Shown here: positions 17,196-57,156 of the stretch, one piece after another
Numbering within the stretch: the first letter of the stretch is position 1
Layout: each line of letters begins with the position of its first letter
From: an uncultured bacterium
Lineage (GTDB): Bacteria > Desulfobacterota_D > UBA1144 > Nemesobacterales > UBA2774
Direction of reading: 5' to 3'
Assembly (NCBI GenBank): GCA_963825135.1
Contig: CAWGRW010000009.1
Location: forward strand, 1,856,001-1,920,000
DNA: 64,000 nucleotides
Translations under genes and position numbers: made by a program
Notes under the pieces: generated by a model
Database searches by the model: none
Told to the model about the DNA's origin: nothing
Seen by the model: only the letters and a program-made list of their open reading frames with translations

Positions 17196-17212
17196 CTGGT
17201 ATGAAGATTGCA
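17196..17212 (+). promoter_or_regulatory. sigma54 (-24/-12) promoter
   Basis: CTGGTATGAAGATTGCA: GG (17198-17199), exactly 10 nt, then GC (17210-17211) within TTGCA; lies just upstream of the riboswitch. Confidence 0.65.
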
Positions 17213-17254
17213 AGTAAGAGTTATATGTAAAAAGATTTAACTAGGCGAGTCCTA

Positions 17255-17346
17255 AACGATAATGGCAAACCATCCGAAAGGGTGGGACGCAAAGCCTTCG
17301 ACCTAAGTGCTGAGAAATCAGCATATGGTGGCCGGGTTACCGAAAT
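17255..17346 (+). ncRNA. c-di-GMP-I (GEMM) riboswitch
   Basis: GGCAAACCATCCGAAAGGGTGGGACGCAAAGCC...CCTAA...ATGG..GCCGGGTTACCGA: GAAA tetraloop P2, GACGCAAAGC junction, P3 with receptor; G at the Vc2 G20-equivalent position favours c-di-GMP over cGAMP. Confidence 0.92.
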
Positions 17347-17467
17347 AGGAAGATTGGTTCTAACCTGAGTATCTTTCCTATGTTGTTCTAACCTGCCTGC
17401 TGATAGCAGGGTCGAATGGAATGCTTCCCTCGAAAGGGTGGTCAAGCCTGAGAAAGGAGGCATTCAA

Positions 17468-18253
17468 ATGAGAGGTTCGACCAAATCCATCACATTTCAC
17501 GTTTTGCTTGCAGTGACTATTCTGTCCCTTTATAGTCCGATGAACTCCCATGCGTCACTCTTCTCCGGATCCTCCATGTCGTCGGGTGGTTCTTCCACTC
17601 CGTCCGGAAGCTCTAAATTACCTCCCGGCACTAAGTATTATTCGATTCAAGATACCTACGTTGATCAGCGAAAAACGAACCTGAGCTTCGGTTCAAATTC
17701 CACTATTCAGATTAAATCCAGAAGTAGCCAGGTGAAGCAGGGACTCGTTAAATTTAACATTTCCGGAATCCCCGCAGGCGCCAAGATTACAAAGGCGACG
17801 ATATCACTATATGTCGCAAAAAAGAGCGGATCCGGCAATTCGGTGGCTGTTTACGAGGCTCTCGGAAACTGGAACAGATCTACGACCTGGAACCAAAAAC
17901 CTCCGATTGCCTCTTCGAGTGAAGCGAGTATGTCCGTTAGTAAAACCGGAAGTTACTACAATATGAGTGTTACAGGCCTGGTTCAGGATTGGGTAAATGG
18001 AACTGAGGAAAACAATGGAATATATGTTGTTGCAAGAAACGGAGAAATGTACTTTTACAGCGGAGAAAGCAAGAAGAACAAACCGGTTTTGACCGTTGAG
18101 TATACAAAAGGTGGACCGTCCGCGACGCCCGCTCCGACACCGGTCCCGTCGCCCGCTCCGACGCCGGCCCCGACGCCCGCACCGTCCCCCGCTCCGACGC
18201 CCGCTCCAACGCCCGCCCGACGCCCGCTCCAACACCGGCCCCGGACACGATAA
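17468..18253 (+). CDS. Secreted DNRLRE (CBM96-like) domain protein with a Pro/Thr/Ala linker; 5' half of a frameshifted gene
   Basis: ATG 17468 after AAAGGAGG; signal peptide; QDTYV...NLSFGS, LVKFNISGIP.GAKI.KATI.LY, TTWNQKP, VT.LVQDWVNG..NNG, F.S.E....P.LTVEY. Confidence 0.85.
   Translation: MRGSTKSITFHVLLAVTILSLYSPMNSHASLFSGSSMSSGGSSTPSGSSKLPPGTKYYSIQDTYVDQRKTNLSFGSNSTIQIKSRSSQVKQGLVKFNISGIPAGAKITKATISLYVAKKSGSGNSVAVYEALGNWNRSTTWNQKPPIASSSEASMSVSKTGSYYNMSVTGLVQDWVNGTEENNGIYVVARNGEMYFYSGESKKNKPVLTVEYTKGGPSATPAPTPVPSPAPTPAPTPAPSPAPTPAPTPARRPLQHRPRTR
18125..18243 (+). repeat. Ten tandem 12-bp repeats encoding (T/S)PAP; unit 8 is one base short
   Basis: Consensus ACGCCCGCTCCG; unit 18209-18219 is ACGCCCGCCCG (11 nt), which shifts the reading frame. 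Confidence 0.93.
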
Positions 18254-18270
18254 AAGTCGGGGATAAGGTT

Positions 18271-19134
18271 GTGGAACCCGGCCAGTCCATACAATCGGCC
18301 ATCGGCGCTGCGTCAAGCGGACAGACCGTCTGGGTTAAATCCGGTACCTGGACCCTAAACGCACAGCTTGTAATGAAATACGGGGTAAGCGTTAAAGCCT
18401 ATCCGGGAATGGAGGCATACGATTGGGATACCGACACCATTAATCCGTCCCACCCGTACATCATTCCGGGCACCTGTTCGCATTGTGGTATAAGATGGGA
18501 ACGAGGTCAGGGAAACAATGAGTTCTCGGGGTTTGAAGTTGCCGGCGGGTATTCCGGCATAGATATCCATGCCGACAACGTGATCGTGAGCGACAACTGG
18601 ATTCACGATACCGACTATACGAGTATATTCATAGCGAGCTCGAGTAATATTCTGGTCGAGCACAACAAAACGGAGCGTGACGGACAGCATTGTGAAGGAT
18701 GGACGAATCCAAATGACGGCACCCAGATAAGCCCGCGTCACTGCCATTCCGTTTACTTGAGCAACGTCGCCGGTTACTGCGGCATGACGAATGTTACGGT
18801 CAGGGAAAATTACCTGTCGGATTCAGGGGGCAGCGCGGTGAATTTTAACGGTGATGACTGCGCAAAAGCCGGCGATCAACTCATATCGAATACCCTGATC
18901 GAGCTCAATACGATAGTGGATGTGAAGGTAGGACCCGCTCTCTGGCACGGCACCACCGGGACTGTAATAAGGGATAACAGTATCACGATCCAGCATCCGT
19001 ACACACCTCCGGGCGCCACAAATGATTTGCCTAGCGGAATGATGTGCGGGATAGTGGCCTGGGATGAAGCGCCGACTAAGTCGGGTAATACCTTTGACCT
19101 CAGGGCTGATTATCAACAGTTTTGCCAATATTAG
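18271..19134 (+). CDS. Right-handed parallel beta-helix (pectin-lyase-like) domain; 3' half of the frameshifted gene
   Basis: PGQSIQSAI..A..GQTVWVKSGT cap; repeated Asn/Gly beta-helix rungs; no signal peptide of its own; in frame with repeat units 9-10. Confidence 0.8.
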   Translation: MEPGQSIQSAIGAASSGQTVWVKSGTWTLNAQLVMKYGVSVKAYPGMEAYDWDTDTINPSHPYIIPGTCSHCGIRWERGQGNNEFSGFEVAGGYSGIDIHADNVIVSDNWIHDTDYTSIFIASSSNILVEHNKTERDGQHCEGWTNPNDGTQISPRHCHSVYLSNVAGYCGMTNVTVRENYLSDSGGSAVNFNGDDCAKAGDQLISNTLIELNTIVDVKVGPALWHGTTGTVIRDNSITIQHPYTPPGATNDLPSGMMCGIVAWDEAPTKSGNTFDLRADYQQFCQY

Positions 19135-19646: not shown

Positions 19647-20900
19647 ATGAAAGAGCTGTTCACTGTTTTATCGTTCTTTTTCTTATCTCTTACATTTATC
19701 ACGTGCAGCGGGGGGAGTCAGTCGGAAGACACTGGCACTAATACCCAGAATAACAGGGAATTCATCGTGGCCAAGGACGGCAGCGGCGATTATACGACGA
19801 TCCAGGCCGCGGTGGACAACTCCAGGCCGGGAGACACAATACAGGTAAAGGACGGGGTGTACAACGAAGGCGTGAGTTTCAGAACTAGCGGTACGAGCGA
19901 GCGGCCTATAACTCTTATGAATTATGCGGGTCACTCGCCTGTGATAGATCCGGGCGGCGGCGCATACCCCCCCGACTACTCACACAGGGTGGAATTATGG
20001 GCGGAGTGGATAATTATACAAGGGTTCGAGATTAGACACGACTGGGACGGGGTGAAGATTTTTATGCCTCACAACACGATACGCGGGAACTGGATACACC
20101 ATAACAAATATGATGGGATTCTGATTATTTCGACAAATGATGTGTTAATTGAGGGTAATACCATAGAATACAACGGGACAGACCCCAATACCTGCTTAAA
20201 TGGGGAGGGCGTGTCTGATCCGAAGCATTGCCACGCTGTGTATATAAGCGATTATTCGTGCACGGGAGCGTCGGATATTACGATCAGGGGTAACGTACTC
20301 AGTAATCAGGGCGGGAGCGGAGTGAATTTCAACGGGCATGGTTGCTCCAGCAGAATGAAAAACACGCTCATTGAGAACAATATCATTGAAAATACTCACT
20401 ATGGTGTGGGGATGTGGTATAGCGTTCAAGACAGCGTGGTCGTGAACAATACGTTTGTTGTAAAGCAGGTCCCGATCACGGATGCTTCAACTCATGCCTT
20501 TGTGGCGGTATGGGGCAGTACGGGCAATATATTCAAGAACAACATTTTCTATAGTGACAGGGGAGACGTTCAGGGGATTCAGATAAATGATTCAGAGTCC
20601 GCGCAGAATACGTTTGACTACAATTTGTGGAATGTAAACGATGAGACATGGGTCTGGCGCGATAGCTGGAGGTCGGACTTTAGTTCTAATTACAGGGCCG
20701 AGACGGGCTGGGACGGCAATGGTCTGTGTTGTAATGTGGACCCGGGTTTCTATGATCTGTCTTCCGGGATATACCAGCTGAGTTCGGACTCTCCCGCTCG
20801 CGACCAGGGAATAAAGAACATATGCGCACCGTCGGATTTTGACAACGAGAGCAGGACGGACCCTTTCTGCGACATAGGTATGGATGAATACACGGAGTAA
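19647..20900 (+). CDS. Right-handed beta-helix putative lipoprotein (polysaccharide-lyase-like fold)
   Basis: Signal with ITCSGG; VAKDGSGDYTTIQAAVD..RPGDTIQVKDGVYNE, SGT..RPITL, beta-helix rungs; C-terminal YQL..DSPARD.G...DIG..E. Confidence 0.85.
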   Translation: MKELFTVLSFFFLSLTFITCSGGSQSEDTGTNTQNNREFIVAKDGSGDYTTIQAAVDNSRPGDTIQVKDGVYNEGVSFRTSGTSERPITLMNYAGHSPVIDPGGGAYPPDYSHRVELWAEWIIIQGFEIRHDWDGVKIFMPHNTIRGNWIHHNKYDGILIISTNDVLIEGNTIEYNGTDPNTCLNGEGVSDPKHCHAVYISDYSCTGASDITIRGNVLSNQGGSGVNFNGHGCSSRMKNTLIENNIIENTHYGVGMWYSVQDSVVVNNTFVVKQVPITDASTHAFVAVWGSTGNIFKNNIFYSDRGDVQGIQINDSESAQNTFDYNLWNVNDETWVWRDSWRSDFSSNYRAETGWDGNGLCCNVDPGFYDLSSGIYQLSSDSPARDQGIKNICAPSDFDNESRTDPFCDIGMDEYTE

Positions 20901-21287: not shown

Positions 21288-22310
21288 CTAGATTTTGACT
21301 GTGACATTCGCCGGATTATTCAGCTTCTGAATCACTTTTGCCGCTATCGCGCGCAGTTTATATAGAGGATTCTTTTGATAAAGGGACCATTTACGTGAAA
21401 CCGAGTTAAATGATTCTCTTCCTGTAATAAGGTACAAAGCGTCTAAAAGCGATATATGAAGCGAATGATAGAACGGACTGCTTATTGTTCCTAATTGATC
21501 GTAATAAGTCCAAAAACCCGTATCGTACAAATGAAGATTCTTCTCTAAAGTCGTCGAGCAGTCGAAGAAAAAACGCTTCACATCCTCTCCGCCGGTCACG
21601 AGCATAAAATCATACACTCCGAACAATGCGAATATGTAACCGTTAAGCACTGTGCTCCTTGGATACTCCGGATATTCTTCCAGGTATATTTGTTTATCTA
21701 TATAATATGTGCATCCGCCCTCTCCTACAGGTGATATCAGAAACTGATATGCCTTTTCAGACGATTCCATGAATGATTTGTCCTTGGTTATTCGATATGC
21801 CCTTATGAGGACCGATATTGCCTCACCCTGGGCCATTGCCGAGTAATTCGATAAAGAGGTAGGTCTCAGGAATTCCCAGGGGTTTTTCCAACCCCCGTTT
21901 TCATTAATGTTTTGATTGAGCCAGCCCGCCAGTCTTAGAAACGTCCTTTGTTGCTCTGCGTCACTCTTCTCCAGCCATAAATCGTAGGTTCCAAGAGCCA
22001 TCTGTGCTACATGAATGGGGAAATAAACAGTATGACCGTTGGAGAGTGTAACGGTCGGTACGCCGTCGCCGTCTGATTTTCCCTTCCAGTCGGCTTTCAT
22101 GCGGAGATCATTGTAATATCCGGATATGAGGTTTGGGCTAATATGTTTGCCCACTGTCTGGGGAACGTGATAGTAACTCCGTCCCAATAATATTCTAAAC
22201 GATCGAGATATTAGATTGATAAATTGTTGAGTTATATTACGGATCCCCTGCAGGTTATATGATGATGCAATATTATGGGAGAGAGCGTCCAAATCAGCGT
22301 TGGCTGACAT
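21288..22310 (-). CDS. D-glucuronyl C5-epimerase family protein (C5-epim_C domain)
   Basis: SAMAQGEAISVLIRAY, LEEYP, VLNGYIFALFGVYD, YDTGFWTYYD and YHSLHI, hallmark motifs of the heparan-sulfate C5-epimerase C-terminal domain. Confidence 0.88.
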   Translation of the reverse strand: MSANADLDALSHNIASSYNLQGIRNITQQFINLISRSFRILLGRSYYHVPQTVGKHISPNLISGYYNDLRMKADWKGKSDGDGVPTVTLSNGHTVYFPIHVAQMALGTYDLWLEKSDAEQQRTFLRLAGWLNQNINENGGWKNPWEFLRPTSLSNYSAMAQGEAISVLIRAYRITKDKSFMESSEKAYQFLISPVGEGGCTYYIDKQIYLEEYPEYPRSTVLNGYIFALFGVYDFMLVTGGEDVKRFFFDCSTTLEKNLHLYDTGFWTYYDQLGTISSPFYHSLHISLLDALYLITGRESFNSVSRKWSLYQKNPLYKLRAIAAKVIQKLNNPANVTVKI

Positions 22311-22529: not shown

Positions 22530-23777
22530 CTATTTCTTGTTTATCAGGCCATCCAGGACCCTAAGGTATTCGGCGGCTTTTGCCGCTCTGGAGAATTCGG
22601 CAGTAACGAATACCCTCCCGTTCTCTCCGAGACTTTTTCTTAACTCCGGATCGGAATACATCCTGTCTATACAATCGATAAGACCCTGAACATTCTCGGG
22701 TTCAAAATCGATACCCGCTTTCGCTTTTTCGATAACCAGGTTCCGGGTTTCTCCTGAAGCCCCTACAATTATTGGCTTCCCGCACGCCATAGGCTCGAAG
22801 ACCTTGGCAAATATGGTTTTTTCGAGGAGCGTTGCTTTGCTGGACAGGACAAGCGAAACGTCGGATGAGTTAATATAATAAGGAATCGTTTCTCTCGGCT
22901 GTTGACCCAGGAATACGACATTGCCGAGCTTTTCATCGCGGCTGATTTTCTCAAGCCTTTCCCTGTCGGAACCGTCCCCTATGAGCAGAAATACGAGATC
23001 CGGAAATCTGCGTTCTATCTCTCTCGCCGCTTCCAAAATAACTTTGACCCCATGCGTATAACCAACGGTCCCGATATATGAAACTATAAACTTATCTTTT
23101 AAACCCTCCATTCCCTTTAATGCGGTATTGACTTCAAAGGGTTTGAAAAAATCTGTATCAACGGCGTTTTCAATGATCTTTATTTTTTCAGACGGAATGT
23201 TTCGTCCCGCGACCAAATGCTGCTTGAATGATTCGGTAACGACCACTATCAAGTCGCTCTTATCGTATAGGATCGATGCCATCTTGTCGAATACCTTGTA
23301 AGATATTGAATTCTCGTCGGCTATGCCGACTGCCGGTATCACCTCGGGCCACAGGTCCCTTACCTCGAAGACGAAGAGCGATCGCTTCAGTCTTGCTGAA
23401 ATGAGACCGGCAAGCCCTACGAAAAGGGAAGGTGAAGTGCCGATAACGACGTCGAATCCTTTTAAAAAGCAGGACGAAATAACGGAAGAGAGAAAAAACG
23501 ATACGTAGCTTATGCTTCTTCTGAAAGCGCTCCTCATGTGTGTGGGAAATCCAATCGTTCTAATTACATTTATTCCATTCAGTTGTTCGCGGAAAATGAG
23601 GTACTTAAGTTTATCCCTGTACTCCGTATAAATAATCCCCTGAGGATAATTCGGGAAGGAGGTCAGAACACTTACGCTATGGCCCATGTTTGCCCAATAT
23701 CGTGAAAGCTCGTAGACCCTTGAAGCGCCAGCGCCCATTTCCGGATAGAAGTTTTGAGAGATATAGAGAATTTTCAT
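22530..23777 (-). CDS. GT4 glycosyltransferase (WbuB-like)
   Basis: ISQNFYPEMGA, V.VLTSFPNYP.G, FEVRDLWPE, Y.GTVG..HG, KVFEPMACGKPI. Confidence 0.92.
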   Translation of the reverse strand: MKILYISQNFYPEMGAGASRVYELSRYWANMGHSVSVLTSFPNYPQGIIYTEYRDKLKYLIFREQLNGINVIRTIGFPTHMRSAFRRSISYVSFFLSSVISSCFLKGFDVVIGTSPSLFVGLAGLISARLKRSLFVFEVRDLWPEVIPAVGIADENSISYKVFDKMASILYDKSDLIVVVTESFKQHLVAGRNIPSEKIKIIENAVDTDFFKPFEVNTALKGMEGLKDKFIVSYIGTVGYTHGVKVILEAAREIERRFPDLVFLLIGDGSDRERLEKISRDEKLGNVVFLGQQPRETIPYYINSSDVSLVLSSKATLLEKTIFAKVFEPMACGKPIIVGASGETRNLVIEKAKAGIDFEPENVQGLIDCIDRMYSDPELRKSLGENGRVFVTAEFSRAAKAAEYLRVLDGLINKK

Positions 23778-24904
23778 TTGTGTGAGTGGTTTAATTCCTG
23801 ATGTATAAGGGTGGCGTATAGATTCTCTATTTTCTCTATCATCGACTCTTGAGTAAAATTCTGTTCGAGTATAGAGAAACCATTTCGACCCATCCGGCTT
23901 CTTAATTTACTATCTTTAAGAAGCGCGGATATTCCTTCCGCCATGGCTCTGTGGTCGCCTGGTTCAACAAGAAAACCGTTGATACCGTCTTTCACGACTT
24001 CGGGAATTCCACCGACATTAGTAGCTACAATGGGTATGGCAAAGGCCATATATTCCAATAGGACTATGCCCAGTCCCTCCTGAGTGGAAGACAAACACCC
24101 TATGTCCAATACCGAAATGACCTTTGAGGCATCTTCGACGAAACCTGTAAATATGATACTGTCCGAGATGCCGAGAGCTTCTGAGAAATCCTCCATCTCT
24201 TTTTTCGTGCTGCCTTCTCCTACCAGTAGAAAAGTCACGTGACTGTCGCTTTTTAATACTTCCCGGGCTGCAAGCAAAAAAGTTCCGTGATCTTTTTCTT
24301 TGCTGAAACGAGCGATCATGCCAACTATCGGTCCGGATTCTCTCATACCGTACCTTTTTCTGAAATCATCGATTGAATCAACCTTCGGCACGTGAATGTT
24401 TATACCATTATGGATTGTTATACATTTATCCGGGAAAGCTCCTATTTTATTCAGGAAAAGAGTACGTTCGTAATCGGACACAAAAATAATTTTATTAGAG
24501 AGCTTGCTGACGATCTTATCCATGAACAGGTGTATCCGGTTGGCATAGATCTGACCGTGTTTATGCGCTATTATAATGGACACACCCGCGATCCAGCCTA
24601 TCAATCCTCCCCAGAAATTTGATCCCAGCTTGTGTGAATGAATGATCTTGATATTATGTTTCTTGATTATTCTGAAGATTCGATAAAATTTGATTATGTC
24701 GTAAAAACGTTTCCTTTTAATCACATAGTACTCAATTCGACGATCTTTCAAGATATCTTCCATGCTTCCGCCGAGCCTGGTTGAACAGAAGATTGGTATG
24801 TATTTCCCGGATCTTTTCAATGAGATCGCTATATCCAACGCAATCTTTTCCGCTCCTCCACCGGGGGATAACGAATCTAAAAGAAATAGAACTTTTTCAG
24901 GCAT
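23774..24904 (-). CDS. GT4 glycosyltransferase
   Basis: GGGAEK, IHNGI, ARF..EKDH, EGLGIVLLEYMA..IPIVATNVGGIPE. Confidence 0.92.
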   Translation of the reverse strand: MPEKVLFLLDSLSPGGGAEKIALDIAISLKRSGKYIPIFCSTRLGGSMEDILKDRRIEYYVIKRKRFYDIIKFYRIFRIIKKHNIKIIHSHKLGSNFWGGLIGWIAGVSIIIAHKHGQIYANRIHLFMDKIVSKLSNKIIFVSDYERTLFLNKIGAFPDKCITIHNGINIHVPKVDSIDDFRKRYGMRESGPIVGMIARFSKEKDHGTFLLAAREVLKSDSHVTFLLVGEGSTKKEMEDFSEALGISDSIIFTGFVEDASKVISVLDIGCLSSTQEGLGIVLLEYMAFAIPIVATNVGGIPEVVKDGINGFLVEPGDHRAMAEGISALLKDSKLRSRMGRNGFSILEQNFTQESMIEKIENLYATLIHQELNHSHK

Positions 24905-25106
24905 GATGAACTAGTCTTGATCAATGATTGTAAATATGGCACTTGGAGGTCGTCCTTGCGTTCATTTCTATAAATATTCCGAGGACGTACAACCCGTCAC
25001 CGCGTCATTGTATGGATATAGTCGATGGTGAAACGCATCATATTGCGGGTCGGGCTTTCTCCGCTATTGTGCTTACAACGTATACAAAAGCCGAATCTCA
25101 TGTCTT

Positions 25107-26549: not shown

Positions 26550-26598
26550 TGTTGCCTATTATTCACTTTCTATAAATTATACTTTATGTTTGATATAA

Positions 26599-27735: not shown

Positions 27736-27753
27736 TGTCGGAGTTCTTACCCA

Positions 27754-28695: not shown

Positions 28696-28729
28696 CGTAG
28701 TAAATTATATAACCAAACGCGGCAGCTTG

Positions 28730-29968: not shown

Positions 29969-30016
29969 GGAGTCTTTTATTTACTGAATGAACGGTTTCT
30001 TTGCCAGATCTATTCT

Positions 30017-36838: not shown

Positions 36839-36901
36839 AAAAAAGAGATGTTAGGCGCTGGATATGCATGGAATATGTGGAGATTACTGGTCTCAGCATG
36901 G

Positions 36902-43711: not shown

Positions 43712-43931
43712 TAGTTATGTTAGTAGAATTTCGCATTGTGAGAATTATAACCCCGTTATCCACAAAATTTCTTTGCCAATATTATTCTTTATAGAATGAT
43801 CTTATACTATGTTAGTATGTTCGTACAAAATCGACCAGCACACGGCTTTCTAGGCTGAGATTGCAGAATACGAAAAGGCAGAGTATTGTGCTCAATTGGA
43901 TAGTTTGGAGAATAGATAAAGTGGCAGATCG

Positions 43932-45720: not shown

Positions 45721-45726
45721 TTTATT

Positions 45727-47055: not shown

Positions 47056-47056
47056 A

Positions 47057-48650: not shown

Positions 48651-50153
48651 GTGATATCCGGGATGTACGAATCCGCAATTTCATACGGCGCGGCAGCTAT
48701 ACTTCTTGTCCTTCTGGTTATTCCGCTGTTGCGGCGGCTGGCGTTCTTAATAGGCTATGTCGACCGTCCGGCTGGCCGGAAACGGCATGAGGAAGCGGTG
48801 CCTCCAATCGGCGGGTTGGCGATTTTCCCTATATTTATACTCTTGTTATTTCTCTCAGGGACTGAACCACCAAGCATTTGGATAATTACGGCTCTGGGCA
48901 TAATACTCGCGGTCGGCGCAATAGACGATGGTTTCTCTTTACCAGCTTGGGTTAAATTGATTGTACAGATCGGTGTGGCTCTTTTAATAGTCGTACCCGG
49001 GCACATACGCGTTTATGGACTCGGCGATCTCTTCGGGTTTGGCGATATGGGGATGAGCTGGATGGGAATACCATTCACTGTTATAGCTGTAGTGCTCGTG
49101 ATAAACGCCATCAATCTGATAGACGGCCTTGACGGTCTGGCAGGCGGTTTGGGCCTGATAATTGTATTTTGGTTAGTGGTCAGCAGTATCGTAGCGGGTG
49201 ATTCGAATAACCTTATGGTGACATCTATATTTGCGGGTGCGCTGATTGGTTTTCTAAATTACAACCTCAGGCATAGGTTTCGGGAAAAAGCGAGTGTTTT
49301 TCTTGGTAATTCCGGCAGTCAGGCGTTGGGTTTGACATTGGCCTGGCTTACGATTGAATCCTCTCAAGGGGGAACCGCTATAATCCGGCCGATCTCAGTT
49401 GCTTGGCTCCTGGCTTTGCCGATTTACGATATTTGCGGACAGTTTGCACGTCGCGTGTACCTGGGACGGCATCCATTCGATCCGGACAGGCACCATTTCC
49501 ACCACCACTTTTTGTACGCCGGTTTGTCCGATGGCCAGGCAACCGCAATCATTCTTGCCCTGTCTTTTTTTGCCGGAATAGTGGGAGTGGGCGGACTGTG
49601 GATAGGTATTCCGGAGAGTGTCCTCACTTATGTGTGGATCGTATTCCTCTTCATTCATATCTACATGTCCATGCTTCCTCTCCGCTACCTGGAATTGCTG
49701 CTGCCATTGCGTGGCAAGAGCATCGATAATATCATAGGCCAGTTGATCCTGGAGTCAGGAGCGATAAGCGAAGATCAGCTTCTCGATGCGCTCGAATATC
49801 AGGGGAAATCAGGAGGGAAGATTGGCGAAATTCTGGTTGAGAAGGGATATATCTCGGACTCAAAACTAATTTACTTTTTGAACCTGCAAGTTGTTAGAAA
49901 TGCCAATGCTAATATCGTAAATGTGAATAAGAAAAAAGATTTCCTGCTGGGAGAAATAATGTTGACTTCAAAGATGATAACAAAGAAACAATTAGAAGAA
50001 GGGTTGAACTACCAAAGGACAAAGGGCGGATGGATCGGGCAGGTGTTGTTGAGTATGGGGTATATTTCGGAATCTGAATTGAGAGATTGTTTGGAAAAGC
50101 AGATACAATACAGGTCTGCGGGCCTGGCTTCGGATGTTGACATCGAATTATAA
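48651..50153 (+). CDS. wecA: MraY/WecA-family undecaprenyl-phosphate sugar-1-phosphate transferase with C-terminal tandem MshEN-like modules
   Basis: VD.P..RK.H...P.IGG, GAIDD, INAINLIDGLDGLA, FLGNSGS, DRHHFHH; C-terminal tail of four xxGxxLxxxGxIxxxxLxxxLxxQ-like repeats. Confidence 0.85.
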   Translation: MISGMYESAISYGAAAILLVLLVIPLLRRLAFLIGYVDRPAGRKRHEEAVPPIGGLAIFPIFILLLFLSGTEPPSIWIITALGIILAVGAIDDGFSLPAWVKLIVQIGVALLIVVPGHIRVYGLGDLFGFGDMGMSWMGIPFTVIAVVLVINAINLIDGLDGLAGGLGLIIVFWLVVSSIVAGDSNNLMVTSIFAGALIGFLNYNLRHRFREKASVFLGNSGSQALGLTLAWLTIESSQGGTAIIRPISVAWLLALPIYDICGQFARRVYLGRHPFDPDRHHFHHHFLYAGLSDGQATAIILALSFFAGIVGVGGLWIGIPESVLTYVWIVFLFIHIYMSMLPLRYLELLLPLRGKSIDNIIGQLILESGAISEDQLLDALEYQGKSGGKIGEILVEKGYISDSKLIYFLNLQVVRNANANIVNVNKKKDFLLGEIMLTSKMITKKQLEEGLNYQRTKGGWIGQVLLSMGYISESELRDCLEKQIQYRSAGLASDVDIEL

Positions 50154-50165: not shown

Positions 50166-51542
50166 CTATTCGTTTTCTCGCTCTGACAACTGGTATTGCA
50201 AACTGTTTGCCAAACCGAGAAGAAAGATAAAGTAGTAGACGTTAGCGGGGATCTGGAAATTGAATTCTGTAACTGCATGAACGAATAGGCCGAACATTCC
50301 GCTCAAGCATCCCAATAGAATGTAATATCGCAGCGGGTCTTTTCGCGGAGAAATCTTTCTTATCTTCCAGATTGCACGTTTATAAAATGATATCAATGCA
50401 AAGAGAACTAAAAAGAAGCCGATGAGGCCGGTTTCGGCCGCAAGCTCCAGATAGTCGTTATGCGCGTGGTCGTACACGTAAGGCCAATACGCATCTTTTT
50501 TATAGAGTGTATATGCTAAACTGAAGGTTCCTAAACCTGTTCCGAACGCAGGAAAATCTTCAATTAGTTTTATTGTGTCTTTCCATATATACGTACGAAG
50601 CGGAAGGGACTCCTCCGTCTCCGAGAATTTTTCTATTACGGGATCCAGTCCGATCCAGAATGAGTAGAGGATAATTATCACAAAAAATACGCCTAGTAAC
50701 CATTTTACCGTACTACTCTTCTTATTCAGGGAAATAAGAAAATATAAGAAAAGTATTGCGGCCGCGAATGAAAATATTGCACCTCGTGATTGAGAGAGTA
50801 TGAGGCTTATGGCGATGAGGGCGGTCACGAACAGCAGGAGTAGATTGCTTGGGGACTGCGTTTTTATGGCTTGTTTCCAGTTGTTTAATTGAAAGTGTTC
50901 TTTAGTGCTGAGATGGATCAAATAGCCCAAAAACACCGGAGTTACCAGGAGCAATAATCCGGCGAAGTGGTTGGGATTGATATAGCTACCGGATGCGGGG
51001 ACGCTTGTTCCGCTAGCGATGTATTGCAGAAGGCCGATGAGTGATTCAATCATTGCCACCGTAAAGACGATCCAGAAGAATCTCTTTATCTGTTTGCTTG
51101 TCCGTATGTAATCTGTCGTAACCAGAAAAAACGCTGCATATGACAAATAAAGAAGCAGTTTTTGATTGGTTACAAAAGGATAAAGACTTATTGTATTAGG
51201 GAGTTTGATTTGACCGCCGAATATATGGTTGAGAGCCTCACTCTTACTCTGCCAAAGCATGAAAGAATGAGGTGACAGTATGCTGAGTATCGAGTCGGGG
51301 AGTCGGATTGACTGAAAGATAATTAGGAAGAAAAACAGCCCCATCGGTACATATAAAGGAGATTGCGGCAGCCGAATTCTTCTCTTGATGATTTTACCCG
51401 TGAGCCAGAATCCGAACGTAAAGAACGCAATGATTTCAAAAAGAGCGACGGACCATGTCTCAACATTGCCAAAAGGTAATGGTGAGAGCAATATTAATAC
51501 TATTCCGCAGCTAATAATAAATGTAATTAGTCTTTCAAGCAT
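50166..51542 (-). CDS. O-antigen ligase / Wzy_C family membrane protein
   Basis: SPLPFG.VE.W, GSYINPNHFAG, SQSRGA, FGTGLGTF, HAHNDYLE, H...EFNFQIPAN. Confidence 0.88.
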   Translation of the reverse strand: MLERLITFIISCGIVLILLSPLPFGNVETWSVALFEIIAFFTFGFWLTGKIIKRRIRLPQSPLYVPMGLFFFLIIFQSIRLPDSILSILSPHSFMLWQSKSEALNHIFGGQIKLPNTISLYPFVTNQKLLLYLSYAAFFLVTTDYIRTSKQIKRFFWIVFTVAMIESLIGLLQYIASGTSVPASGSYINPNHFAGLLLLVTPVFLGYLIHLSTKEHFQLNNWKQAIKTQSPSNLLLLFVTALIAISLILSQSRGAIFSFAAAILFLYFLISLNKKSSTVKWLLGVFFVIIILYSFWIGLDPVIEKFSETEESLPLRTYIWKDTIKLIEDFPAFGTGLGTFSLAYTLYKKDAYWPYVYDHAHNDYLELAAETGLIGFFLVLFALISFYKRAIWKIRKISPRKDPLRYYILLGCLSGMFGLFVHAVTEFNFQIPANVYYFIFLLGLANSLQYQLSERENE

Positions 51543-51564
51543 ATTTTAGATAATGTAAGCATGT

Positions 51565-52815
51565 TTATTTTTCTTTCTCCAGAGCGACGTTATCGACCCA
51601 CACAATTCCCGAAATGTTATTGCTAAATTTGTCGGTTTTGTGACGTCTTAATTTCAAAACTATGGTGCTGCAGTCCTTAGGAGTTGTAAATGAGAATGTC
51701 ACAAGATGCCAATCCGTTGTACCGCGAACCTGCTCGGACTCAGCGTGAAGATTATTGTTGTTTACGCATTCTGCTTCCCATAGGAGTCCGTTCTTCGTAG
51801 AAATATCTTTACTTTTCATGAGTGATGACAATTTATAATTCGTCTCATCGTCTACAGGTATAAATTGATATAAATGATAAAAATCGACATTTTGCTTTCC
51901 ATCGAATTCGATTTTGATTGAACGGCCGTTATCGGTGTGGTCAATGTTTTCTGAAATTTTTGCTCCTTCCACATTGCCCAGTCTCCAATCAAATCCTGCA
52001 TTTCTAATCTTCTGATTGAAGTCCCCGTTCCATACGCCTTCCCATTTGCCTAATCGGTCGGCCCAGACATTTTTCGCGGTGGGTAGTTCTCTTTCGTTAA
52101 TTAAAAATACGACATATCTGAGAAATATGTCTTCCGGTATTTCACCTATACCCATACTGGATAATTTTTCCCAAGTGACCTTCGCTTCGGAGACCCTGTG
52201 TGTACTAATAAGGAAGTGCAGGTACGCTGGGAGGGCGTTATCAGAAACTGCCTCCCGGACTTTATCCCCGTTTCTGAGTGACTGCCATAAGATTGGAAAT
52301 GCTTTATAACGCCTGTGCCGGTCATAGGCAATTACGGCTCGTAAATTATTGATTAGGACTTCTTCGTCTCCGAGCCTCGATGCGAGCATGCCGGCTGCCC
52401 ACCTGAGGGATACTACACCGGGAGCGAGCTCGGTTGCCTTGTTGAGCGTATATACTGCAAGATCCCTCTTGCGATCCTGCAAAAGGAATTCGGCCAGATA
52501 ATACCAGTAGTTGTAGTCTAAGGGGTTAAGTTCAAGGGCTTTTTTGTAAAGATCGTAGACCCGGCCACGCGGGGCGGACAAATCGTAATTTGCGTAATAT
52601 TCTCCAAGCATGAAATAGAACTGGGAATTTCCGCTCTCGATTCTTATGGCTTCGTTGAAGCCGTTAGGGGGAGGATCCGTCGCGTAAACGTAAGACAGCC
52701 AGTTCTTGGCTGCGCTCCAGGAAAGAAATAGTGTGATGGATATCGTGAGGAGGATATATGTATAAAGGGAAAACCTGGAACCTATTGTAAATTTCATATA
52801 CCCGGAGTTACACAA
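51565..52815 (-). CDS. Membrane-anchored TPR protein with a C-terminal carbohydrate-binding-like (CBM4/9-type) domain
   Basis: N-terminal TM; TPR-like YKKALELNP, KATELAP; WNGDF......GFDW, GTTDW....F.TP.DC, G.VWVDNV.L. Confidence 0.7.
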   Translation of the reverse strand: MCNSGYMKFTIGSRFSLYTYILLTISITLFLSWSAAKNWLSYVYATDPPPNGFNEAIRIESGNSQFYFMLGEYYANYDLSAPRGRVYDLYKKALELNPLDYNYWYYLAEFLLQDRKRDLAVYTLNKATELAPGVVSLRWAAGMLASRLGDEEVLINNLRAVIAYDRHRRYKAFPILWQSLRNGDKVREAVSDNALPAYLHFLISTHRVSEAKVTWEKLSSMGIGEIPEDIFLRYVVFLINERELPTAKNVWADRLGKWEGVWNGDFNQKIRNAGFDWRLGNVEGAKISENIDHTDNGRSIKIEFDGKQNVDFYHLYQFIPVDDETNYKLSSLMKSKDISTKNGLLWEAECVNNNNLHAESEQVRGTTDWHLVTFSFTTPKDCSTIVLKLRRHKTDKFSNNISGIVWVDNVALEKEK

Positions 52816-52896
52816 TGATGCAGATTTACAGATAAGTCAATTTATCGCAACGAGAATTTGCTATCAACCGGGAAATATCAGTGAGTATCTAATGCG

Positions 52897-55266
52897 CTAA
52901 ACAGATTTACCCAAATCGTCCCGTTTGGTTTTCTCAACGGATTTCGCGGCTGCGAGCTTTTTCTTTTCATCGTCTTCGCCGTAATAGTAGTTGTACGATT
53001 TATAGTAATAACTGTTTTGATTGAGCTCTATGCCGTTGACTATCACTCCCAGGAAATTTGCCTTCAAGCTCCACAGCCTGTCTATCAGCTCCCTTATAGA
53101 GTTCTTGGGTGTTTTGCCTGCCCTTACAACTACCGCGACTCCGTCGACAAGGCTCGAAATGATATGGGAGTCGACAAACCCCAGTGCCGGAGGACCGTCA
53201 ACTATTATATAATCATAGTCGTCCGTTAGAGTTTGAATTAACTCTCTCATACGGTTAGAACCCAAGAGTTCGGCCGGGTTGACGGGTATCGGACCTACGG
53301 GAAGTACATACAAGTTGGGTATCTCCCCCTGTGAAATAACGTCGCTCAAATTCGAATTTCCGGTCAGGAAGCTGCTGAGTCCGTTACCGTTATTGCCGAG
53401 GATAGTTCCGATTCTCGGACGCCTGAGGTCGGCCTCCAGAAGGAGAACTTTGCTTCCTGCCTGAGCGAAAGAAGACGCGAGGTTAATCGACACGGTTGTT
53501 TTTCCTTCTGCCGGGAAGCAGCTCGTGATTAGAATCGAACGGGGCGGCTTGCCGGGAGTGGAAAGGAGAAGAGAAGTCCTGATGGTTCTGAATGATTCGG
53601 CAATATGAGATCTAGGATCAAGTAGAAATAATTTCTCAACAGGTGAATCCAAACTGTCCGTTTGATTGGATTCAAACACTCCTCCGAGGACCGGCAGTTT
53701 GAGCTTGTCCCTCACTTCTTCAGACGTTTTGACCGTATTGTCGAAATACTCCAGGAAAAAGGCCAGGAAAATGCCGCCGCCTATTCCGAGGATACACGCT
53801 ATAAGCAGGTTCAAAGTCACATTGGGTTTAAACGGTATTATCGGAATTTGCGCGTAGTCAACAACTTGTATATTGCTAGCTGTTATGGCCGATGACACTT
53901 CGGTTTCTTTTAGTCTTTGCAAAAGGCTGTTATAAATAGTTTCATTCGATTCAACCCCTCTTTTGAGTATGTTGTATTGAATCGATTTGTCATTTAGTGC
54001 GGAAGCAAGAGTCTTTTGCTTCTGATAACTTTCCCTGAGAGTTTCTTCTTTTTTAAGCGAGGCGTCGTAATCTGATTTGACGGATGAGGCTATGCTGTTT
54101 TGAGCTTCTTCGATTTTTGCTTGCAATTCGGCTACCCTCGCCCCAAGCTCTTTCACCTTCGGATATCCTGATTTAAAAGTCGAGCTCAGCTGGCTGTACT
54201 CCGACTGTGCCCGAGCATGCTCTGCTTTCAGGTTCTGGATATAGGGGTCGTTCATTACCATTGACAATGAGTCTATGTTGCCGTCTAACGCATGCTTATA
54301 AAGTGATTCCTTCTCCAGTCTCGAGGTTTCTGCCTTTGCGAGCGCGTCGTTGAGTTCCGAGAACGTGTGGTAAGTTATGTTCATCTTTTCGTCGAGGGAA
54401 ACAATGTCGTTGCTCTTGGCGAACCCGTTCAATTTCTCTTCGGATAGTTCAAGGTTAGACTGTGCCTGTTCAATCTGTTTTTTAAGGAAATCCCTGCCCT
54501 GTTTTGTAGCGTCCAGTTTCCTGTTCAGGAGCCAGTTGATGAACGTATCGCTTAAAGCATTGACCGCTTCTGCCGCGAGTTTTCGGTCATGTGATACGAA
54601 ACTTACATCGACAAGGCGCGAGTTGCCTACGGGGGTTATCAGGAGCCTGCTGGTAAAAGCATTGATCAAATCGTCTTCTTGACCCGCCTGGGCGATCTCT
54701 TCATCAGCGCCGGATGTCTGCGTCTCCTGCGGTCTCGTGGTTATCTTTTTTATTCCGTTGAGAATGTTATCTATCAGACCGTTAACACTCGACATTGCCC
54801 TGGAAATCAGACTCTGCTTCTTTTTTTCGGGGTTGAAATCCGGGTTCTCCGCCAGATTAAGTTTTTCGACTACTTGTTTTGCCAAAGAGTTGCTTTTTAA
54901 GAGAAGGTACTGAGTTTCATAGAACTCTTCGGATTTGGTCTCGAGTTCGACCACCTGGTCGAAATTCACGACTTTAGGGTTTTCCAGAGAAATTTCGAGC
55001 TTCGCTGTGGCCTTGTATTCGGGCTCCGTCAAGAAAGTCGATATCAGAGTCGATATCAGTACGATGACGAAAAATACAATGATTACTTTCTTTCTCCTGA
55101 GTACCACCTCGATGTAGCGGTGGATAGCGCTTTCTTCATCTACCGGATAAGCCCTCAATATGTCCGGCGTATTAGGATAAGCGCGAAGGGACCTCTCTTC
55201 GTTTTCAGGTACGAGGTTCCGGCCTTTGCCGTCACCGATCATTTTATCTCTATCGTTATTTTCCAT
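52897..55266 (-). CDS. wzc: Polysaccharide co-polymerase / tyrosine autokinase (Wzc/GumC family)
   Basis: Two TMs around a coiled-coil periplasmic region; ESFRTIRT, Walker A PAEGKT, EADLRRP, IIVDGPP; Tyr cluster SYYYKSYNYYY. Confidence 0.93.
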   Translation of the reverse strand: MENNDRDKMIGDGKGRNLVPENEERSLRAYPNTPDILRAYPVDEESAIHRYIEVVLRRKKVIIVFFVIVLISTLISTFLTEPEYKATAKLEISLENPKVVNFDQVVELETKSEEFYETQYLLLKSNSLAKQVVEKLNLAENPDFNPEKKKQSLISRAMSSVNGLIDNILNGIKKITTRPQETQTSGADEEIAQAGQEDDLINAFTSRLLITPVGNSRLVDVSFVSHDRKLAAEAVNALSDTFINWLLNRKLDATKQGRDFLKKQIEQAQSNLELSEEKLNGFAKSNDIVSLDEKMNITYHTFSELNDALAKAETSRLEKESLYKHALDGNIDSLSMVMNDPYIQNLKAEHARAQSEYSQLSSTFKSGYPKVKELGARVAELQAKIEEAQNSIASSVKSDYDASLKKEETLRESYQKQKTLASALNDKSIQYNILKRGVESNETIYNSLLQRLKETEVSSAITASNIQVVDYAQIPIIPFKPNVTLNLLIACILGIGGGIFLAFFLEYFDNTVKTSEEVRDKLKLPVLGGVFESNQTDSLDSPVEKLFLLDPRSHIAESFRTIRTSLLLSTPGKPPRSILITSCFPAEGKTTVSINLASSFAQAGSKVLLLEADLRRPRIGTILGNNGNGLSSFLTGNSNLSDVISQGEIPNLYVLPVGPIPVNPAELLGSNRMRELIQTLTDDYDYIIVDGPPALGFVDSHIISSLVDGVAVVVRAGKTPKNSIRELIDRLWSLKANFLGVIVNGIELNQNSYYYKSYNYYYGEDDEKKKLAAAKSVEKTKRDDLGKSV

Positions 55267-55298
55267 TTGTATACTTCTCTTTTAAGATGAATTTAGCT

Positions 55299-56315
55299 TT
55301 ACTGTACGCCTACGCTAAACGGCGGGAAAAACAATCCGAGCCTAATAGCGTCGAAGAAGCTCTTGATGGCATTTTTGCCTACGACTATTGCGTCCTGGTC
55401 CTTCAAAACTATATCCGCAGAATTGCCCTCTTTAATGCCGTCCAGGTCTACGGCCGTAACCTGCACCTGACCATTTTCTTTCCTCATCAGACTGACATCG
55501 GACGCCTCCGCTGTTTTGGCGAGTCCTCCTGCCGCTGTGATCGCCTGACTGACGGTCATATTGGTTTCCAATGGGATGGTGCCGGGTTTAATTACGGCTC
55601 CGTCAACATATACTACACCTGCTTCCGGTATGTATACAACATCGCCCATATGAATAGGAATATTCAGATCCGATTTGCCCTCGTCAAGCAATTCTCCGAG
55701 ATCAATTTCAACCGCTTTCTTCTGACCTTCCTTGCCCTTTCGCGTAACGTATGCCATTTCGCTTGCATCCGCGTTTAGTCCGCCGGCCATTGCAATAGCG
55801 TCCAGCAGGTTCCCCTTACCCAGCAGTTCATACGTCCCCGGACTCTTTACGCTGCCAATTACAGCTACCCTCTGACTTTTGAATTCTTTAATGGACACGA
55901 CAACATGTGGGTCGTTCATGTATTTTTCCGTCAATTGTTCCTTTATCCTTTCTTCCGCTTCCAAAGCAGTAAGACCGCCGACCTCCACCGTCCCGAGCAG
56001 GGGGAATGAAATCATATTCTTTGAGTTTACCCTCGCCTCCGTATCCAGATCCGGGGCCTCTACGACTTTAATTTCCAGGAGGTCTCCGGGCCCGAGAAGG
56101 TAATCATCGGATGCTGACGAACTAAAGGTTTCCTGAATTAATTTACGGTTTAATTCCTGATTCTCGGTGTTAACCTCCCTTTGTGCCTGTGGAAGGGTAC
56201 GCGTACCCCCTGCGGTCGAGCCGCCGCCGCAGGCGGTGCAAAAGACACCCGCGAGTAAGAGTAAAGCTATCCCTGTTTTGATATAGCGATTCAATTTACA
56301 CCAATACCCCACCAT
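55299..56315 (-). CDS. wza: Polysaccharide export lipoprotein (Wza-like; Poly_export plus SLBB domains)
   Basis: Lipobox TAC; DYLLGPGDLLEI, ISFPLLG.V.VGGLT, V.G.VKSPG, AIAMAGGL, V.GAV..PG. Confidence 0.9.
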   Translation of the reverse strand: MVGYWCKLNRYIKTGIALLLLAGVFCTACGGGSTAGGTRTLPQAQREVNTENQELNRKLIQETFSSSASDDYLLGPGDLLEIKVVEAPDLDTEARVNSKNMISFPLLGTVEVGGLTALEAEERIKEQLTEKYMNDPHVVVSIKEFKSQRVAVIGSVKSPGTYELLGKGNLLDAIAMAGGLNADASEMAYVTRKGKEGQKKAVEIDLGELLDEGKSDLNIPIHMGDVVYIPEAGVVYVDGAVIKPGTIPLETNMTVSQAITAAGGLAKTAEASDVSLMRKENGQVQVTAVDLDGIKEGNSADIVLKDQDAIVVGKNAIKSFFDAIRLGLFFPPFSVGVQ

Positions 56316-56400
56316 AAATCAATTATACATCCTCTCAAGTCGGGAAGTATAATCTTTATAGTAAATCTACGTAATTTCGTATTGCTGTGGATTAAATACC

Positions 56401-57156
56401 CTACTCGGTTCTGAGAACGTTGCTGGCGTTATGATCTCCGCCGCCGCCGCAAAGGGCCCCGCATACAGCACCGGTAACCGCAGCCGCACCGACAGCCGCC
56501 GGAATCAATAACGGAGCCGCTGCTGGTGAACAACACCCCGATTTATTTTCAAATGAATCATAGGGGTTTTGTTTATCAGGACTCGAAGCGGCATCTCCCG
56601 GTTCGAGAGTTTGAGTGTTCATATTGGTCTTGAAATTTGCGTATCCGTCGAATTGAATTGCTGAAGTAACGTTCTCTTTTACGTTGGTTCTGCCGTCGAC
56701 ATACTCAGGCGACCCCGCTTTAACTGCGCTCTCGTCCGGAGGAATTGTATCGGCCGCGGGAGTATCAACCAGGAAACCGCTTTTCGGATTGAAGCAATAG
56801 CAGACCTCTCCCTGGTCGCCCTGAGTCAGTAACAGCCCGGTAAATCCATCCCCTATGGACTGTACTTTGAATACAGATTTCGGCTCAATCACGTATTTGC
56901 CGCCGTTGACGATCAGTGTCGCTTTGCCGTTATCCAATGTATCAATGATCATGTCAGGGTAGATAGGATAGCTCTCGTCCTTTAATGTGACCTCGCTCCC
57001 GTCTATAAGTGTAACCTTTACTTCGTCTGAGACTTTCATGGTTCCGAGAGAAACCTGAGCGTCAAGTGAAGTCTGTGCAAAGACAACAGCGACCGGCTGA
57101 AGAAATAAAAAGCCCGCCACAAAAAACGACAACGTCATCTTCAATGTTCTGGTCAT
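56401..57156 (-). CDS. Exported protein of unknown function with a C-terminal hydrophobic segment
   Basis: ATG 57156 after AGGAGAGGAGG; signal peptide ending in VFA; beta-rich body; C-terminus GCCSPAAAPLLIPAAVGAAAVTGAVCGALCGGGGD. Confidence 0.75.
   Translation of the reverse strand: MTRTLKMTLSFFVAGFLFLQPVAVVFAQTSLDAQVSLGTMKVSDEVKVTLIDGSEVTLKDESYPIYPDMIIDTLDNGKATLIVNGGKYVIEPKSVFKVQSIGDGFTGLLLTQGDQGEVCYCFNPKSGFLVDTPAADTIPPDESAVKAGSPEYVDGRTNVKENVTSAIQFDGYANFKTNMNTQTLEPGDAASSPDKQNPYDSFENKSGCCSPAAAPLLIPAAVGAAAVTGAVCGALCGGGGDHNASNVLRTE

Follow-up and report, generated by a model that had tools for sequence, protein, structure and literature searches.

Allosteric control by cyclic di-GMP (c-di-GMP) is textbook knowledge only for synthase-type systems (cellulose, alginate, Pel and NfrB), and c-di-GMP-I riboswitches precede genes for secreted adhesins or enzymes in Vibrio, Clostridioides difficile and Bacillus. 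NfrB, of the NfrA/NfrB N4-glycan-receptor system of Escherichia coli, is a surface-polysaccharide glycosyltransferase with a C-terminal receptor of the MshEN type, the motif glycines of which are essential (PMC8669472; papers are cited here by PMC number). In the MshEN layout, a 5-residue spacer joins two motifs of 24 residues each (PMC5013675); the architecture table in the same paper (Wang et al.), which refers to Pfam for further architectures, places the domain on type II secretion (T2SSE) ATPases, NfrB-like family-2 glycosyltransferases (GT2), the EpsG kinase, REC, CheX and others, and on no protein of PF00953 or PF02397 (PMC5013675). Post-translational control is described as incompletely understood for Wzx/Wzy pathways, and as poorly understood for Wzx/Wzy- and ABC-type pathways together, with c-di-GMP control being characteristic of synthase pathways (PMC12802240). 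Here we describe a 64,000-bp stretch of DNA from an uncultured bacterium (assembly GCA_963825135.1, contig CAWGRW010000009.1; G000:C9:1856001-1920000, below called the window), in which an exopolysaccharide (EPS) island carries a c-di-GMP-I riboswitch in front of a gene for a secreted protein and, on its initiating polyprenyl-phosphate sugar-1-phosphate transferase (PGT), a tandem MshEN_N tail as a putative c-di-GMP sensor.

We give a chance of roughly two in three to the reading that this is one EPS island with a protein-level sensor (the tail) and an RNA-level sensor (the riboswitch) for c-di-GMP. The 54 open reading frames (ORFs) of at least 100 aa in the window were scanned against Pfam, and 38 of those also against NCBIfam; the window has a GC content of 46% and the host genome (G000; relatives are numbered likewise, with f for families and g for genera) a size of 3.13 Mb. 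Both elements pass their family models: the aptamer scores 77.8 bits with RF01051 over model positions 1-87 of 87 (E 1.4e-13; the gathering score is 35) and is the sole Rfam family at gathering level in the whole window, and the tail (residues ~357-500) scores 105.9 bits with NF053729, 'c-di-GMP-binding domain, MshE-related' (cut-off 38), in two stretches. A note made earlier from the sequence letters (the original prediction) had proposed two c-di-GMP-type sensors in one locus, i.e. an MshEN tail on the initiating transferase and a riboswitch on a secreted carbohydrate-binding/beta-helix gene; both are present, and the tail is tandem, not single. Its premise, that allosteric control by c-di-GMP is typical of synthase pathways but not of the enzymes that initiate a polymer, agrees with the introduction of PMC12802240. 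The features concerned are:

17254..17344, plus strand: c-di-GMP-I (GEMM-I) riboswitch aptamer (RF01051).
17345..17467, plus strand: putative expression platform, with hairpin arms at 17345-17354 and 17371-17381, and an anti-Shine-Dalgarno (anti-SD) element at 17419-17428 opposite the SD region at 17456-17465.
17468..19134, plus strand: riboswitch cargo, with signal peptide, CBM96/DNRLRE carbohydrate-binding module (CBM), Pro/Thr/Ala linker and right-handed beta-helix (CBM96 97.6, NF033679 112, Beta_helix 33 bits).
48651..50153, plus strand: initiating PGT of the WecA/PNPT type with C-terminal tandem MshEN_N tail at 49719-50150 (PF00953, NF053729; the gene caller starts at ATG 48663).

The PGT matches PF00953 with 118 bits (cut-off 27), which makes it a member of the PNPT superfamily, and the WecA equivalog TIGR02380 with 209.3 bits, below the cut-off of 326; it is therefore taken as a PNPT-type PGT of unproven sugar specificity. 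Its gene stands alone on the plus strand with minus-strand operons on both sides, and a gene-free stretch of 686 nt (47966-48650), in which an Rfam scan found no family at gathering level, separates it from the divergent wzm operon. In a profile search of the genome with NF053729, the two tail copies scored 63.0 and 57.6 bits. Each tail domain comprises two 24-residue motifs and a 5-residue spacer (GKSGG and RTKGG, respectively), and the tail matches by sequence the solved c-di-GMP-bound domains of PilF (1.5e-11) and MshE (5htl, 7.4e-07) in the PDB; with a profile of ten tails these values improve to 5e-18 and 1.1e-09. An AlphaFold2 model of the tail shows 2 x 4 helices (pLDDT 75), and the 12 best PDB matches that Foldseek gave for it belong without exception to MshE or PilF-GSPII, with an rmsd of 0.7-3.6 A for 51-58 aligned residues.

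Across these ten tails, which are 50-70% identical overall and come from both enzyme types described below, the ligand-contact positions 3 (Gly), 17, 21 (Leu) and 24 (Gln) show no variation over 4/4 motifs and 10/10 tails, and 40/40 motifs match the relaxed motif of Wang et al. with zero to two misses. Position 1, which is R in the strict consensus and R, K, P or N in the relaxed one of Wang et al., is occupied in the window's four motifs by I, K, L and W, of which K and L fall inside the extended consensus and I is a like-for-like hydrophobic residue. PilF's GSPII-B domain, which like the tail has no Arg at this position, carries K and L there and binds with 6 nM affinity, for which the consensus was extended to (R/K/L)LG, and a hydrophobic first residue was proposed to predict high affinity (PMC11731258); the lack of a position-1 Arg need not disqualify the tail. 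Changes of charged residues shift affinity at most fivefold, whereas hydrophobic changes cost more than tenfold (PMC5013675). The changes that abolish binding in XpsE (motif 1, positions 3, 11 and 21; motif 2, positions 1, 3, 17, 21 and 24; PMC5013675) do not include any substitution that occurs in the tails. Two hydrophobic segments follow the HHFHHH loop of the PGT, and the tail is therefore placed on the same side as this loop. That side is presumably cytoplasmic, by the topology of WecA. We infer that the tail binds c-di-GMP and affects catalysis.

In one and the same slot of the island, the predicted sensor tail is joined to PGTs of two unrelated folds. When 40 relatives plus G000 were searched for the WecA-type fusion, it was found at full length in G000, G003, G004, G020 and G023 and as a fragment in G009, and in another seven genomes only the tail was strongly matched, by frames of 354-385 aa. 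Domain scans of six of these seven proteins (all save that of G021) gave the same result in 6/6, a Bac_transf domain (PF02397, 211-219 bits) followed by NF053729 (84-127 bits); the tail is tandem in five of them, with the second copy frameshifted in G007. The Bac_transf-MshEN genes adjoin an orthologue of the same Wzy_C gene as the WecA type, and an alignment of WecA-type with Bac_transf-type tails extends over their full length, inter-domain linker included. Both types are present within genus g1 and within genus g4, and the PGT therefore behaves as a swappable cassette that retains its sensor. G009 (7% contamination) contains a WecA-MshEN fragment (77% identity, G009:C16) as well as a Bac_transf-MshEN gene (G009:C17:803107-804117), and may be a mixture of two strains with alternative PGT cassettes.

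Among 120 genomes of the phylum, Bac_transf fusions were found in nine of family f1 and in three of family f7, plus G036 of the latter family, in which the tail was confirmed separately. A search with the window tail only gave 24 proteins, 20 with PF00953 and two with PF02397 (149-150 bits), the next following at 54 bits; the closest named homologue is from a Candidatus Dadabacteria metagenome-assembled genome. An exhaustive search with a profile matched 13,423 representatives at E<=0.001, and the best 101 scanned of the 150 listed included one PF00953 protein, one PF02397 protein and seven NfrB-like GT2.

The aptamer ends 124 nt before ATG 17468, which is most likely the start of the cargo gene, given the AAAGGAGG SD sequence in front of it and a signal-peptide-like N-terminus. 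Fourteen genomes of family f1 have an orthologous aptamer, each at 309-371 nt from one and the same flank gene, and the architecture of the leader is conserved among these: a helix P1 of 4-7 bp between the 5' flank and the first post-aptamer bases is present in 14/14 leaders, that of G011 showing two changes that compensate each other (CCUA:UAGG to CCAA:UUGG), and the 3' strand of P1 is at the same time the 5' arm of the following hairpin in 14/14 (in the window, the arm at 17345-17354, which pairs with 17251-17255). A pyrimidine-rich anti-SD:SD duplex of -11.5 to -16.7 kcal/mol can form in 14/14 leaders, a value that is equalled in 0-10% of shuffles, and this helix shows register shifts and compensatory changes between genera. 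This SD-sequestering helix points to control at the level of translation, and a terminator scan found no site between the aptamer and the start codon. A transcription-termination model was dropped; a U-rich tract behind the post-aptamer hairpin is found in some genomes only. The leader further contains an 11-nt direct repeat, GTTCTAACCTG, at 17357-17367 (loop of the post-aptamer hairpin) and 17387-17397 (just 3' of this hairpin), and CTAACCTG is conserved among the genus-g1 leaders.

Riboswitch, cargo and tail-bearing PGT are linked in the testable family genomes. BLASTP synteny gave one frame in G003, G004, G011, G014, G020 and G023, in the order flank genes, riboswitch, secreted cargo, glycosyltransferase (GT) block, variable middle, Wzt/Wzm, PGT, Wzy_C, TPR-CBM protein, Wzc, Wza, two unknowns, SRPBCC and hisD. 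In 7/7 testable genomes, i.e. those with both ends on one contig (G000, G004, G020 and G023 with the WecA type; G007, G011 and G013 with the Bac_transf type), 18-31 kb separate the riboswitch from the PGT, which lies downstream on the same strand; contig breaks exclude G003, G009, G012, G017, G021, G098 and G100 from this count, of which G003 is compatible. A PGT-MshEN gene was found in 11 of the 14 f1 genomes with the flank riboswitch, the exceptions being G008 and G018 (88% and 82% complete, fragmented) and G014, which has the same island on a single contig with a riboswitch-led CBM96/beta-helix protein. These genomes are kin, and the counts do not represent independent events. A differently arranged pair is found in G036 (family f7), where the gene for a Bac_transf protein with a single MshEN_N (58.3 bits) converges on that for a riboswitch-led protein of 1290 aa (CBM6/35, PKD, beta-helix).

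The window carries one discrete EPS island. It spans about 41 kb, from the riboswitch at 17254 to ~58790, bounded by the flank gene at 16400-16924 and by hisD; the 40 kb proposed in the original prediction (17196-57156) were about right. The island is also gained or lost as a unit. The distance between flank gene and hisD is 1.8-2.0 kb in all four genomes without the island (G010, G015, G022 and G024), compared with 37-43 kb where it is present (36.9 kb in G014, 42.7 kb in G000), and neither a riboswitch at the flank nor a Wzc orthologue was found in these four (0/4). With adjacent flanks and both of these genes or elements missing in 4/4 genomes, the island is therefore regarded as a single unit of insertion or deletion, at the edge of which the riboswitch lies.

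The cargo is split in the present assembly into ORFs 17468-18253 (CBM96/DNRLRE) and 18271-19134 (beta-helix), within the Pro/Thr/Ala linker, and is held by relatives as a single protein of 558-754 aa (558 aa in G009, 614 aa in G011, 754 aa in G014); the helix part of the G009 protein shows 84% identity. Run X1 holds two contigs from a related population (depth 5.8 of 5.8) with one additional base after 18216, and the frames on both sides of ~18216 join to a read-through protein of ~555 aa. Among the sequencing runs listed there was none of RNA; the best DNA runs share at most 0.17 of the words, hold contigs of relatives and were used for this position only. The one-base gap after ~18216 reflects a genuine frameshift or, alternatively, a slip of the assembly within a repeat. 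A PDB sequence search with the fused cargo of G009 gave a linker-like match only (E 1e-05) and no solved relative. The cargo probably acts on a specific polymer, as a lyase, a hydrolase or a modifying enzyme. The founding CBM96 is reportedly specific for alginate, and CBM96 together with the C5-epimerase of the island hints at a uronic-acid polymer.

The other features of the island, as assigned with Pfam and NCBIfam, are:

19647..20900, plus strand: second secreted beta-helix protein of 417 aa, NosD-, chondroitinase B- and Pel9A-like (Beta_helix 58.8, NosD 39 bits).
21288..22310, minus strand: glucuronyl C5-epimerase-like gene, accessory (PF06662, 155 bits).
22530..33071, minus strand: conserved GT block with five GT4, one GT2, Wzy_C protein 1 (25107-26549), a polysaccharide deacetylase and an Acetyltransf_6 protein.
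33755..44699, strand unassigned: variable middle with two PMT_2 (GT-C) proteins, a GDSL/AlgX-like protein and an LA_3751-family GT, and further a GH130-like protein, an ArnC-like GT2, GtrA and a methyltransferase (43932-44699).
44779..47965, minus strand: GT2, Wzt (ABC ATPase, weak Wzt_C) and Wzm (ABC-2 permease) (ABC_tran 86.6, ABC2_membrane 71.5, NF050108 193.6 bits).
50166..58790, minus strand: Wzy_C protein 2, a TPR+CBM_4_9 protein, Wzc (polysaccharide co-polymerase, PCP-2a, with tyrosine kinase) and Wza (outer-membrane polysaccharide export protein, OPX).
56401-57219 and 57504-58790, minus strand: two proteins without known family.

The 417-aa beta-helix protein is 69% identical to the riboswitch-led proteins (577-587 aa) of G020 and G023, so that an orthologue of this second gene is the direct riboswitch cargo in these two genomes. 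Its closest ESM Atlas clusters are DUF1565/Pel9A-like (score 0.95-0.98; a lead only), and a PDB sequence search gave nothing below E 0.05.

The GT block (22530..33071) and the block at 50166..58790 have orthologues in the same order in G003, G004, G011, G014, G020 and G023, and the variable middle differs among relatives, e.g. with three Acetyltransf_6 proteins and APH-like kinases in G020, G023 and G004. The kinase domains are found in proteins of 538-567 aa beside methyltransferase genes (L019:5248-6861, L017:457-2157, L020:11639-13303); these proteins may be likened to WbdD-type chain terminators of ABC-exported glycans. Of the kinase/methyltransferase pair the window has the methyltransferase only, plus Wzt with its weak Wzt_C match. 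Asparagine-synthase-like amidotransferases (~645 aa) within the islands of G011 (L035:4244-6181) and G014 (L032:12912-14852), absent from the window, suggest amidated uronic acids in some strain variants.

The hybrid set of export genes and the C5-epimerase that the original prediction had listed are both present. The Wzm/Wzt genes (45727-47965) adjoin the PGT, and are kept beside the PGT slot in all loci examined, which places the island with the ABC-transporter-dependent pathways; the ABC transporter is combined with Wzc, Wza and the two Wzy_C proteins. No Wzx-type flippase (Polysacc_synt/MOP) was found among the 54 ORFs, so that the island does not qualify as a Wzx/Wzy pathway, and Wzc of the window was found to have no MshEN domain with Pfam or NCBIfam.

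The window opens with a secY-adk-map-rpsM-rpsK-rpsD-rpoA-rplQ operon and housekeeping genes, and polysaccharide genes predominate from ~11.5 kb on. The left flank (14234-16924) encodes a 519-aa protein without known family, the C-terminus of which weakly resembles an invasin or beta-barrel, an RnfG-like protein (FMN_bind) and an unknown of 174 aa; these genes are kept even where the island is absent, and the orthologues of the 174-aa gene in G007, G011, G017 and G023 show an in-frame stop in the search output.

The genome contains ten c-di-GMP-I riboswitches and five GGDEF proteins, the closest GGDEF match lying ~84 kb past the window end, and its relatives have 0-17 riboswitches. As the original prediction had stated, there is no cyclase or phosphodiesterase in the window: no GGDEF, EAL or HD-GYP match to Pfam was obtained among the 54 ORFs, the search for EAL and HD-GYP covering the window only. 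Riboswitch sites elsewhere on G000:C9 are found, e.g., at 553740, 1674752 and 2471061, and other riboswitch targets comprise a pilM-like operon, one protein that looks PilZ-like at its N-terminus, and large proteins, secreted or unknown (all named by reading their N-terminal sequences). NF053729 is above cut-off in two more proteins of the genome, in frames of 881 and 483 aa (G000:C9:608547-608792 and 1343504-1343656), and the PilB/MshE-like ATPase of the genome, at 1631653, also has an MshE-related domain.

The mechanism that we propose has the tail bind c-di-GMP and gate the first lipid-carrier-consuming step in the synthesis of a polymer on undecaprenyl phosphate; most likely, by analogy with NfrB and BcsA, the tail would activate the PGT at high c-di-GMP. 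The tail is a portable module, with a homologous tandem copy on the monotopic Bac_transf PGTs (PglC/WbaP type) of sister strains, the WecA type being polytopic. At the left edge of the island, the riboswitch would control the secreted CBM96/beta-helix protein by means of a P1/alternative-hairpin switch coupled to the SD-sequestering helix, and c-di-GMP may turn the cargo either on (as a co-produced processing enzyme) or off (as a dispersal enzyme that is made as c-di-GMP falls). The full combination, i.e. gating of the initiating PGT through a portable tandem MshEN_N on two folds, and a riboswitch-set level of the secreted enzyme, with c-di-GMP toggling between building and trimming or release of the matrix, is put forward tentatively, at a little short of even odds.

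Several observations weigh against reading the island as one EPS locus with two c-di-GMP sensors. Constrained folding with the aptamer forced left SD accessibility unchanged in 8/8 leaders, the SD being sequestered either way; the switch logic is therefore left unexplained by folding models. The structural matches of the tail model have weak Foldseek E-values (0.026-1.1), and the pLDDT of the model is 75. The conserved synteny among kin may reflect inheritance and not selection. Of the parts that the original prediction expected to stay linked across genomes, riboswitch, cargo and PGT-MshEN do so in the testable family genomes, and the C5-epimerase does not: a protein search found it in 0/5 fusion genomes, an orthologue being otherwise present in the G011 island only (50% identity, 158 bits), and it is therefore accessory and not core. 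Beyond the family the linkage holds in one of four fusion genomes (G036); G047 and G048, two of the four f7 fusion genomes, have no riboswitch on the contig of the fusion, and G041 is uninformative in this respect. The whole-system view of the original prediction is partly supported: it gains from the island moving as a unit and from the occurrence of the tail on two unrelated initiating enzymes, and is weakened by the accessory epimerase, the tail-less PGT of G014, the patchy linkage beyond the family and the interrupted cargo gene of the present assembly.

Some features of the tail would fit a degenerate MshEN_N scaffold that does not bind c-di-GMP and serves dimerisation or docking (to Wzc, Wzt or Wzy_C), with the riboswitch as sole input, which we consider distinctly unlikely. 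The canonical position-1 Arg is counted as absent in 3/4 motifs, the first motif of each domain beginning with I, V, L or F across the tails and the fourth motif of the WecA type with Trp, which is without precedent in the literature consulted; K, N, D or E replaces the usual Gly at position 10 of motif 3 in 9/10 tails; and PF05157 (T2SSE_N/MshEN) did not match protein or tail even at E<=10, a failure that fits the absence of the MshEN C-subdomain, with the N-subdomain (MshEN_N) alone present; the identity of the tail was settled by the NCBIfam model and by homology to PDB entries. Non-binding MshEN-like domains do exist (XpsE and PilF GSPII-A; PMC5013675, PMC11731258), and the island of G014 runs with a 212-aa Bac_transf PGT without tail, between DegT and Polysacc_synt_2 genes, so that the island as such can do without the tail. 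A scaffold is, however, hard to reconcile with four invariant ligand-contact positions in tails that have diverged to 50-70% identity, with the absence of XpsE-type substitutions (PMC5013675), with the nanomolar binding that accompanies a hydrophobic position 1 in GSPII-B (PMC11731258), or with NF053729 scores far above cut-off in both stretches. Scarcely more probable is that the riboswitch-cargo unit is independent of the island polymer, as a c-di-GMP-regulated secreted enzyme or adhesin for foreign or environmental polyuronates. The catalytic part of the cargo is swapped among genomes (287-aa-type beta-helix, GHL15-like, 417-aa-type beta-helix) behind a constant riboswitch, the cargo genes are convergent and not co-transcribed with the GT operon, nine other riboswitches of the genome precede unrelated genes, and G047 and G048 have the fusion on a riboswitch-free contig; moreover, the cargo gene is interrupted in the present assembly, and the founding CBM96 reportedly binds alginate. 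Against such independence, riboswitch and cargo lie inside the island in 14 family genomes and are absent with the rest of it in all four genomes with adjacent flanks, the G036 pair recurs in a different arrangement, and the cargo domain varies alongside GT and PGT content, as expected for a strain-specific polymer enzyme; EPS loci often encode their own lyase or hydrolase, e.g. AlgL, PslG, BcsZ and PelA. The island may also encode more than one glycan pathway: 40 kb could hold at least two adjacent pathways, e.g. an ABC O-antigen-like or protein-glycosylation pathway (Wzm/Wzt, a Wzy_C/WaaL- or PglL-like ligase, PMT_2, GtrA/ArnC) and a Wzc/Wza capsule or EPS pathway, with the PGT-MshEN feeding one of them only. 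Two Wzy_C proteins in the absence of Wzx, an ABC transporter alongside a PCP-2a kinase and an OPX protein, a GtrA/ArnC-like/PMT_2 module that suggests periplasmic decoration, and the presumably WbdD-like kinase and methyltransferase genes of relatives (capped ABC-exported glycans) all speak for such a split, and we rate it as unlikely but to be reckoned with; it sits poorly with a single PGT (PF00953 or PF02397) among the 54 ORFs, with the fixed order Wzm/Wzt, PGT, Wzy_C, TPR-CBM, Wzc and Wza in all loci examined, and with the insertion/deletion of the whole block as one.

Should the full combination put forward above hold, the PGT would be the first initiating one under allosteric control by c-di-GMP. 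How scarce undecaprenyl phosphate is rationed between the cell wall and optional surface polymers is an open question, which a putative cis-fused receptor on two unrelated folds, together with a natural tail-less variant (G014), makes directly testable. Riboswitch-led enzyme and sensor-PGT in one island would also provide a compact model of one messenger acting at RNA and protein levels on one matrix, and the system sits in a little-studied, uncultured lineage. A full-text literature search gave no prior description of a PGT-MshEN fusion, and a literature search on Dadabacteria with c-di-GMP, and on a riboswitch with a polysaccharide lyase, gave none either; in annotated genomes, the tail would already be labelled by NCBI's domain model.

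In comparison with the known systems, the tail shares with NfrB the invariance of the motif glycines that are essential there, and the NfrB model (NF008411) matches the tail only (E 2.8e-08, 32.6 bits, cut-off 1170), so that the protein is not of the NfrB type. NfrB, a c-di-GMP-activated, processive GT2 synthase of the BcsA type, carries out polymerisation and export with no lipid-carrier step, whereas the PGT of the window has no GT2 domain; unlike in NfrB, the putative receptor is tandem and sits on an initiating transferase of an ABC/Wzc-Wza-type pathway, and on two PGT folds. With the MshEN (GSPII) domains of MshE, PilB and PilF the tail has in common the 53-residue unit of two motifs and the four-helix fold, but in those proteins the domain is N-terminal on a type IV pilus or T2SS ATPase, and here MshEN_N occurs twice at the C-terminus of a membrane enzyme. 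A fusion of MshEN_N to an EPS component of the Wzc/Wza type is known from EpsG of Methylobacillus (methanolan EPS; PMC5013675), and residues 4-60 of TIGR03029 align to the window tail; the fusion partner in EpsG is, however, the PCP tyrosine kinase and not the initiating transferase. Like the c-di-GMP-I riboswitches on other genes for secreted adhesins or enzymes, that of the window is a standard GEMM-I aptamer, placed in the 5' leader of a gene whose secreted product is related to surface or matrix, and it differs from those in its position at the edge of an EPS island with a putative protein-level receptor, and in an apparently translational platform. Control of the first step that consumes undecaprenyl phosphate in a non-synthase pathway has been described for phosphorylated EpsW acting with EpsZ in Myxococcus xanthus and for CapB1-CapM in Staphylococcus aureus (PMC12802240); these systems employ a separate phosphorylated response regulator or tyrosine phosphorylation, where the island described here would employ a c-di-GMP sensor fused in cis.

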